NCBI RefSeq assembly: GCF_044647545.1
Contig: NZ_CP172818.1
DNA length: 64,000 nt
Reading direction: 5' to 3' (one strand)
Origin: Escherichia coli
GTDB taxonomy: Bacteria; Pseudomonadota; Gammaproteobacteria; Enterobacterales; Enterobacteriaceae
Shown here one piece after another: positions 35,814 through 55,745 of this stretch (position 1 is the stretch's first letter; every line of letters starts with the position of its first letter). The position numbers were made by a program, and so were the translations under genes. The notes below the pieces were generated by a model. It did not search any database. It was given only the letters and a program-made list of their open reading frames with translations, and had not been told where the DNA came from.

Positions 35814-36044
35814 TGACGATGCCGGGCGTGGGTTGTTGGCGTCCGGCTTTATATCAAAACAACTCTTATTTATTGATAATTAAGATTAACCTCCGCCATT
35901 AAAATATGGGCACTGACGAGCACTCGTTTCTTTCTTTTTTACCATCCCATACTTATCTTCCTGAATATGTTCATATGCCAAAATATCTTCTAATACTTTC
36001 GACCTACCGGTTTATGAAATACACTGATGAAGATTTTTACTTAC

Positions 36045-36545
<501 letters not shown>

Positions 36546-36653
36546 AGCTAAACCCGCCGATTGCGCTACAATGCCCGCCCTTAAAGTGGGGGCACTCCCC
36601 TAACCGCTTCATCAGGTGAAGCGGATCTGACCTGTCATCAGAACGAGAGAATT

Positions 36654-54334: not shown

Positions 54335-54470
54335 CCTGCCATAACGTGAAGAAGCAATGACCTGGTGGTCCGTGACTTCCCTACGCTGGCATTATCCAGA
54401 TCAGGTGATACGGGTATTTCTCAGCCTTCACGCAGAAGGGCACCCCGAGTCGTTTGGTTGCGATAATAAA
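54335..54470 (-). promoter_or_regulatory. TPP (thi-box) riboswitch in the thiM leader
   Basis: + strand 54374-54446 is the reverse complement of GGGGTGCCCTTCTGCGTGAAGGCTGAGAAATACCCGTATCACCTGATCTGGATAATGCCAGCGTAGGGAAGTC, the thiM aptamer with its CUGAGA element. Confidence 0.8.
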
Positions 54471-54548: not shown

Positions 54549-54821
54549 TTATTTGATATAAGAATCCAGCACCTTCAGAACGACATCCAGATCTTCTTCA
54601 CGTTTTAGCTCATCCCCCTGGTGAACGATGTGTTCCGTCAGATGGCCTTTAATCACTTCCCGCATCAGACCGTTTACCGCGCCACGGATAGCAGCAATCT
54701 GTTGTAAAACTGCAGCGCATTCGTGCGGCTCGTCGAGCATTTTCTTGAGCGCCACGACCTGGCCCTGAATCTTACTGGCACGCGCTTTCAGTTTCTGTTT
54801 ATCACGGATGGTATGAGACAT
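54549..54821 (-). CDS. rcnR: Ni/Co-responsive transcriptional repressor RcnR (CsoR/RcnR family)
   Basis: 90-aa [55 protein letters not shown]... Confidence 0.9.
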
Positions 54822-54869: not shown

Positions 54870-54904
54870 TACTGGGGGGTAGTATCAGGTACTGGGGGGG
54901 AGTA
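54870..54904. promoter_or_regulatory. Two RcnR operator sites (TACT-G6-N-AGTA) in the rcnR-rcnA intergenic region
   Basis: tactggggggtagta at 54870-54884 and tactgggggggagta at 54890-54904. Confidence 0.7.
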
Positions 54905-54941: not shown

Positions 54942-55745
54942 ATGACCGAATTTACCACTCTTCTTCAGCAAGGAAATGCCTGGTTCTTCATCCCCAGCGC
55001 CATCTTACTTGGTGCGCTTCATGGCCTGGAACCAGGGCACTCAAAAACGATGATGGCGGCGTTTATCATCGCCATCAAAGGCACCATTAAACAGGCGGTG
55101 ATGCTCGGACTGGCAGCAACCATTTCGCATACCGCGGTGGTCTGGTTGATTGCCTTTGGCGGGATGGTAATCAGCAAACGTTTTACTGCTCAATCTGCAG
55201 AACCGTGGCTCCAGTTGATTTCCGCGGTGATCATTATTGGCACCGCGTTCTGGATGTTCTGGCGTACCTGGCGCGGCGAACGCAACTGGCTGGAGAATAT
55301 GCACGAGCACGAGCACGAGCACGAGCATGATCATGAGCATCATCACCATCACGAACATGGCGAGTATCAGGATGCCCATGCACGAGCCCATTCCAATGAC
55401 ATTAAAAGACGATTTGATGGTAGAGAGGTCACCAACTGGCAAATTTTGTTATTTGGCTTAACCGGTGGCCTTATCCCCTGCCCGGCAGCAATTACCGTGC
55501 TGTTGATTTGCATTCAGTTGAAAGCCCTGACACTGGGCGCAACACTGGTCGTCAGTTTTAGCATTGGCCTGGCGTTAACGCTTGTCACCGTAGGCGTTGG
55601 CGCAGCAATCAGCGTTCAGCAGGTCGCAAAACGCTGGAGCGGATTTAACACTCTCGCTAAACGCGCCCCCTATTTTTCCAGTCTGTTGATTGGCTTAGTT
55701 GGTGTGTATATGGGCGTACATGGCTTCATGGGCATAATGCGATAA
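54942..55745 (+). CDS. rcnA: Nickel/cobalt efflux protein RcnA
   Basis: 267-aa membrane ORF with His-rich cytoplasmic loop (HEHEHEHEHDHEHHHHHEHGEY). Confidence 0.9.
   Translation: MTEFTTLLQQGNAWFFIPSAILLGALHGLEPGHSKTMMAAFIIAIKGTIKQAVMLGLAATISHTAVVWLIAFGGMVISKRFTAQSAEPWLQLISAVIIIGTAFWMFWRTWRGERNWLENMHEHEHEHEHDHEHHHHHEHGEYQDAHARAHSNDIKRRFDGREVTNWQILLFGLTGGLIPCPAAITVLLICIQLKALTLGATLVVSFSIGLALTLVTVGVGAAISVQQVAKRWSGFNTLAKRAPYFSSLLIGLVGVYMGVHGFMGIMR

Follow-up and report, generated by a model that had tools for sequence, protein, structure and literature searches.

Background

Salmonella carries in yohM a repeat named STTR5, SENTR5 or SE-5, with the unit CACGAC, which is a standard fast-changing variable number tandem repeat (VNTR) and which gains or loses single units when strains are passaged in the laboratory (PMC5183578, PMC2430564, PMC1781188). 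A raised mutation rate was reported for STTR5 alleles of 15 and 26 units (PMC5183578). The gene yohM is the Salmonella orthologue of rcnA, and STTR5 is a hexanucleotide repeat of histidine codons described as lying between the two domains of the protein. Here its orthology with the E. coli tract is taken from the gene name yohM, and its position from published descriptions rather than from an aligned Salmonella sequence. Compared on that footing, STTR5 has a median of 10 units, reaches 26 and is much more mutable, whereas the E. coli tract analysed below has 4 units.

Two typing loci of E. coli itself bear on the same gene. CVN007 is a locus of the generic E. coli MLVA scheme of Lindstedt, dating from 2007. 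Its alleles are numbered by the formula (PS-314)/18 (PMC8143711), and allele 3 was found in 87% of isolates, with allele 2 in ST648 profiles (PMC3407997). VNTR-19, also called TR7 or O157-19, belongs to the PulseNet scheme for O157:H7. It lies in the open reading frame Z3274 and has a 6-bp unit present in 3-11 repeats, with 9 alleles in 202 O157 strains (PMC3321953), and 5-7 repeats are typical (PMC10062581). The VNTR reading frames are listed as hypothetical proteins or proteins of unknown function (PMC3321953). VNTR-25 was also considered as the O157 locus in rcnA and was rejected, as it is intergenic in Table 1 of PMC3321953 and Z3274 holds VNTR-19.

Length changes in this protein are known outside these schemes as well. 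In-frame His/Asp insertions were described in Klebsiella pneumoniae RcnA (PMC11445613), and the RcnA loop, which is 67 aa long in E. coli, measures 100-123 aa in cable bacteria (PMC11247825). Proteins of the CDF family (plant MTP1, ZnT) and the RcnA of cable bacteria both have a flexible His-rich loop of very variable length between transmembrane helices, although the CDF proteins are a different family from RcnA. The His-rich loops of CDF exporters have a functional role. The literature searched reports no RcnA loop mutants.

The window, which is the whole 64,000-nucleotide stretch of E. coli DNA that was analysed, contains an rcnA gene with a short hexanucleotide tract. We are highly confident that this tract is a hexanucleotide VNTR which encodes the central His-rich loop of RcnA within an rcnR-rcnA-rcnB locus, that its length variants most likely came from slippage and direct-repeat events, and that the loop is probably flexible and tolerant of them. 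This reading joins direct observations (the identity of the gene, its polymorphism, the restriction of the polymorphism to the loop, the allelic series and the identity with published typing loci) to a proposed mechanism and a proposed loop behaviour.

The rcnA locus in the window

The gene rcnA occupies 54942..55745 on the plus strand and encodes the Ni/Co efflux permease RcnA, formerly YohM, of 267 aa, as assigned from its open reading frame and from profile matches. Pfam NicO (PF03824) matched residues 13-266 with 226.1 bits (cut-off 27.7), and NCBIfam NF007454, "nickel/cobalt efflux transporter", matched residues 1-267 with 540.1 bits (cut-off 195). These full-length matches above curated cut-offs place the protein in the RcnA family. 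The gene is 100% identical to the annotated rcnA of FDAARGOS_497, and the protein is RefSeq WP_022645861.1. According to papers that cite the 2005 work of Rodrigue, the K-12 allele of RcnA reportedly confers efflux of Ni(II) and Co(II) and resistance to them.

The neighbouring features are those of a metal-responsive efflux locus. Divergent from rcnA, on the minus strand at 54549..54821, is rcnR, which encodes the Ni/Co-responsive repressor of rcnA and was recognised from its open reading frame, from Pfam Trns_repr_metal and from its annotation in all related loci. Downstream, on the plus strand at 55964..56302, is rcnB, which matches Pfam RcnB and has an annotated counterpart at the same place in related loci; its product is a periplasmic protein accessory to the efflux system. 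The intergenic region between rcnR and rcnA holds two RcnR operator sites on the plus strand, at 54870-54884 and 54890-54904, which match the consensus TACT-G6-N-AGTA (PMC7055735); 2 matches were found in this region against 0 expected by chance. The two sites are 20 nt apart, as the literature describes, and one has a G run a base longer than the other: the first site has G6 and then T, the second G7. The gene order rcnR-rcnA-rcnB is annotated in 16 of the 16 related rcnA loci that were fetched, and the setting expected of RcnA, with rcnR, operators and rcnB, is present in the window.

Three further features of the region were noted. An open reading frame antisense to rcnA, at 55041-55442 on the minus strand, was considered as a gene and rejected, being a mirror image of the repeat without supporting evidence. 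In related genomes, the annotation places a TPP riboswitch upstream of thiM, and by offset from a related locus this riboswitch would fall at about 54361-54457 on the minus strand of the window. That place beside rcnR is taken in O157:H7 genomes by a gene with the annotation "outer membrane protein" instead.

The repeat and the loop it encodes

A reading made from the sequence alone had pointed to an imperfect CAC/GAG codon repeat in the RcnA histidine-rich loop and had placed its start at 55300. The 57-nt string that it gave is present and in frame, at 55302-55358, so its start is 55302 rather than 55300, and its in-frame translation is HEHEHEHEHDHEHHHHHEH. The string begins with a perfect (CACGAG)4 at 55302..55325 on the plus strand, which encodes (His-Glu)4, was located by Tandem Repeats Finder and a regex scan, and varies in copy number within its allele family. 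A listing of the loop codons shows that the repeat goes on in degenerate form, as CATGAT CATGAG (His-Asp, His-Glu), at 55326..55337 on the same strand. Next, at 55338..55346, is the 9-mer CATCATCAC, of which the window has one copy and the 274-aa alleles have two, 39 nt apart.

Tandem Repeats Finder reported an array of period 6 (6.5 copies, 90% matches) at 55301-55339, and the tract thus has the head-to-tail short units of a VNTR. In the regex scan of the 64-kb window, no perfect hexanucleotide repeat of 3 or more copies was found other than (CACGAG)4. Tandem Repeats Finder also reported a 12-nt repeat elsewhere, CCAGCCCCACCA, with 2.3 copies at 1155-1182.

One codon pair is used by all 4 His-Glu units. 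Given the codon usage of the window itself, such agreement has a probability of about 0.03 if any single pair is allowed, and of 4e-4 if the pair must be CAC-GAG. Four units with an identical codon pair suggest that the units were duplicated at the DNA level, and are not the product of peptide selection alone.

The core of the His-rich loop runs from M120 to G140 (55299..55361, plus strand), with the sequence MHEHEHEHEHDHEHHHHHEHG, and its 21 residues include 12 His, 6 Glu and 1 Asp. A Kyte-Doolittle scan placed it in a hydrophilic stretch at about residues 111-165 (about 55 residues), with Arg/Lys-rich edges and hydrophobic segments on either side; the scan is crude, its helices overlap and are poorly resolved, and it is usable only for the hydrophilic centre and the Arg/Lys-rich flanks. 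The protein therefore has the arrangement expected of RcnA, a central hydrophilic loop rich in His, Asp and Glu between hydrophobic halves. By the positive-inside rule the Arg/Lys-rich flanks suggest that the loop is cytoplasmic, and the loop of a distant RcnA homologue was likewise predicted to be cytoplasmic (PMC11247825). A search for a solved structure of RcnA returned none, the only matches being spurious ones of the His tract to His-rich tails or tags, for example in cobaltochelatase.

Correspondence with published typing loci

The primers of CVN007, taken from Table 1 of PMC8143711, have sites in the window with 0 mismatches, the forward one at 55202..55222 on the plus strand and the reverse one at 55529..55549 on the minus strand. 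They flank the tract, and CVN007 is the same locus as the window tract. The amplicon in the window is 348 bp, which corresponds to allele 2, while the K-12 length corresponds to allele 3. The published frequency of 87% for allele 3 agrees with the share of about 88% for K-12-length genomes found here, and the published allele 2 in ST648 profiles agrees with the presence of the window allele in a strain named ST648 (both published values from PMC3407997). The CVN007 scheme uses an 18-bp unit and fragment size only, so that 6-nt units and sequence classes of the loop are left unseparated.

The primers of VNTR-19, taken from Table A1 of PMC3321953, land on the rcnA gene of an O157:H7 genome, around the tract. 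Their homologous sites in the window are at 55224..55259 on the plus strand for the forward primer (3 mismatches, against 0 in an O157:H7 genome) and at 55456..55484 on the minus strand for the reverse primer (3 mismatches, against 1 in an O157:H7 genome). By primer placement, then, both CVN007 and VNTR-19 are the locus studied here. VNTR-19 shares with the window tract its gene, its loop and its 6-bp unit, and the 4-10 units found in complete O157:H7 genomes compare with the published range of 3-11. The sequences of the two tracts differ. The O157 allele has the unit GACCAC (Asp-His), a loop of 37-39 codons at 5-6 units and an extra Asp-Asn-Glu after the tract, whereas the window allele has the unit CACGAG (His-Glu) in only 4 copies.

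The length variation of the rcnA loop has thus long been known and already serves as a strain-typing marker, and the finding is correct but ordinary. It has little importance beyond correct annotation, because the coding VNTR is already in use as CVN007, as VNTR-19/TR7 and, in Salmonella, as STTR5. A literature search under the name rcnA for indels, polymorphism or slippage returned nothing relevant, and the link was made only through the old name yohM and through primer mapping. The typing literature searched does not give a gene name for CVN007, nor does it connect these typing loci with the His-rich loop of a metal exporter. That the CVN007 and VNTR-19 typing loci are such a loop is worth recording.

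Length variation across E. coli

Of the 5,426 complete E. coli genomes searched, 5,365 have a match to rcnA and about 61 have none. The sequence-only reading had put the K-12 protein at about 274 aa, against the 267 aa seen here, and had proposed a polymorphism of loop length. That K-12 length is right: K-12 rcnA has 825 nt and encodes 274 aa, not 267. Nor is one loop length common to all strains, since the fetched coding sequences encode proteins of 262, 267, 269, 273, 274, 276, 278, 281, 282, 283 and 285 aa. Match lengths imply further alleles of up to about 293 aa, which gives an overall span of 262 to about 293 aa, and the differences lie in the loop as had been proposed.

Restriction of the variation to the loop was established from a protein alignment of 13 alleles and from codon-by-codon listings of the loop. 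Allele lengths differ only in the loop segment, except that two alleles lack a residue at the C-terminus, and the transmembrane parts are nearly invariant across the aligned alleles. The differences are of whole units between conserved flanks, as expected of a VNTR.

Allele classes were counted by matching queries made of the loop and about 60 nt on each side against the 5,426 complete genomes. The K-12 length class holds 4,706 of 5,363 genomes (88%), made up of 1,458 at 99% identity or more and 3,248 at 95-99%; its length was checked in 52 sampled rows from both identity bands, and 52 of the 52 had the K-12 length. The loop DNA of this type is an interrupted tract without a pure repeat. Window-type alleles, (CACGAG)n, account for 140 genomes at all copy numbers together. 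Within them, (CACGAG)4, the window allele, is found in 82 genomes (1.5%), including the strain named ST648, while (CACGAG)5 is found in 40 and (CACGAG)3 in about 14, including IAI39 and CE10. The rcnA genes of the window (4 units) and LWY24 (5 units) are otherwise near-identical. O157-type alleles, (GACCAC)n with the extra Asp-Asn-Glu, were found in 287 genomes, where match lengths imply 4-10 units and about 281-293 aa. The counts for (CACGAG)3 and for the O157 copy numbers come from BLAST match lengths and identity bands and are not a full tabulation.

The number of histidines in the loop core varies along with its length. It is 8 in PK8276, the shortest allele fetched, 12 in the window, 17 in K-12, 21 in O157 alleles of 6 units and about 25 in those of 10 units.

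At 3-5 copies (CACGAG)n may be fairly stable. Among the 82 genomes with 4 units, in all of which the loop region is at least 99% identical and of equal length, about 77 show no difference anywhere in the 183 nt, a pattern that fits descent in a single lineage better than frequent change. A few alleles of 4 units carry a flanking SNP otherwise seen with 5 units, so that one copy number occurs on two flank backgrounds. This hints that, in the window-type family, the number of units has changed repeatedly or alleles have recombined.

The same counts bear on whether the 267-aa allele might be a sequencing or assembly artefact, a repetitive tract collapsed in this one assembly. The window does hold a clearly corrupted stretch, at 36040-36545. 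However, the whole rcnA gene is 100% identical to that of FDAARGOS_497, the loop is at least 99% identical and equal in length in 82 independently assembled complete genomes, RefSeq carries the 267-aa protein as WP_022645861.1, and fragment sizing by MLVA found CVN007 allele 2 in ST648 isolates. An artefact is thus extremely improbable, and rcnA is unaffected by the corruption at 36040-36545, as the 82 independent genomes corroborate.

The corrupted stretch itself is about 500 nt of abnormally low complexity, including a G run of about 44 and an A run of about 65. A recognisable parD drifts into homopolymers there, and normal sequence resumes abruptly at 36546. None of the complete E. coli genomes covers 36040-36545, and at its position the related strain IMT16316 has a parD/parE toxin-antitoxin pair between yegP and yegQ. 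The stretch is most likely an artefact of assembly or base calling.

How the alleles may have arisen

The window allele was compared with the 274-aa allele of AR_0162. It lacks 39 nt between two direct repeats of CATCATCAC and has 3 additional CACGAG units, for a net difference of -21 nt. The shortfall of 7 residues against the common allele is therefore not one contraction of a shared repeat. On parsimony, the loss of 39 nt at CATCATCAC is inferred to have been a deletion between direct repeats. The 262-aa allele of PK8276 equals a K-12-type allele minus 36 nt between two CACGAACAT repeats, and the alleles of 278-288 codons have duplications of 15-18 nt.

Two kinds of event would together produce such alleles. 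Slipped-strand mispairing may act at runs of identical 6-nt units, CACGAG in the window and GACCAC in O157:H7, and deletion or duplication may act between short direct repeats of 9-18 nt within the segment rich in His, Asp and Glu codons. Judging from the allele sequences, slippage together with direct-repeat deletion and duplication is most likely the source of the length variants. The suggestion that the tract is prone to in-frame expansion and contraction agrees with the series found, (CACGAG)3, 4 and 5 in the window family and (GACCAC)4-10 within O157:H7. How readily a tract mutates appears to depend on its purity and its number of copies: the K-12-type tract, which is interrupted, has one length in about 88% of genomes, whereas pure tracts form allelic series, even inside the O157:H7 clone. 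Microsatellites behave in this way.

Loop length and function

The best-supported view of the loop's function is that it would be a length-tolerant, flexible metal-binding loop. The RcnA loop is probably a flexible cytoplasmic metal-binding segment which tolerates large changes in length and histidine count, and we infer from the spread of alleles that such changes are functionally tolerated.

An alternative is that selection within each lineage sets the length of the loop and its number of histidines, to suit Ni/Co efflux capacity, metal selectivity or cytoplasmic metal buffering. Consistent with it, the loop His count spans about 8 to 25 across alleles, all alleles are in frame and rich in His, Asp and Glu, and the loop of cable-bacteria RcnA is greatly expanded. 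PMC5183578 and PMC11445613 both raise the idea that length has an effect, and do so, like PMC11247825, as explicit speculation. The suggestion of the sequence-only reading that loop length could tune metal binding is likewise speculative. The alleles are also associated with lineages (O157, and a window-type family with IAI39, CE10 and the strain named ST648), but this association is equally predicted by neutral inheritance. Moreover, a single length is common to about 88% of genomes, which come from many sources, and a 6-nt unit alone guarantees that the frame is retained. Selection of loop length by lineage is therefore unlikely, and tolerance of length change is preferred. If lineages were so selected, the 267-aa allele with 12 histidines and the O157 alleles with 20-25 would differ measurably in Ni/Co efflux, metal selectivity or cytoplasmic metal buffering, and a repeat used for routine typing would prove to have a tuning function. 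For probing the role of the loop, natural variation already offers alleles with 8 to about 25 histidines in it.

Reading frame and damaged copies

Tandem repeats within a coding sequence are the usual substrate of on/off phase variation, in which repeat changes would switch rcnA expression as in contingency loci. Here the repeat unit is two codons long, so that gain or loss of a unit stays in frame; a 6-nt unit never shifts the frame, and every loop indel seen, in all the alleles examined, is a multiple of 3 nt. The lone frameshifted rcnA that was met, in 2017.06.05CC, breaks upstream of the loop, near codon 46, and its loop is in frame with 126 nt. No switch of frame or promoter spacing, which would mark a phase-variable contingency locus, was found at this locus. 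The in-frame loop indels and the frameshift upstream of the loop rule out on/off phase variation for practical purposes, and the length variation is again best read as that of an in-frame coding VNTR.

Some other copies of rcnA are damaged or displaced. The gene of 2017.06.05CC, having lost its frame near codon 46, is a pseudogene, another rcnA adjoins or is interrupted by an IS3-family transposase, and some genomes have partial matches only. One rcnA copy is plasmid-borne.
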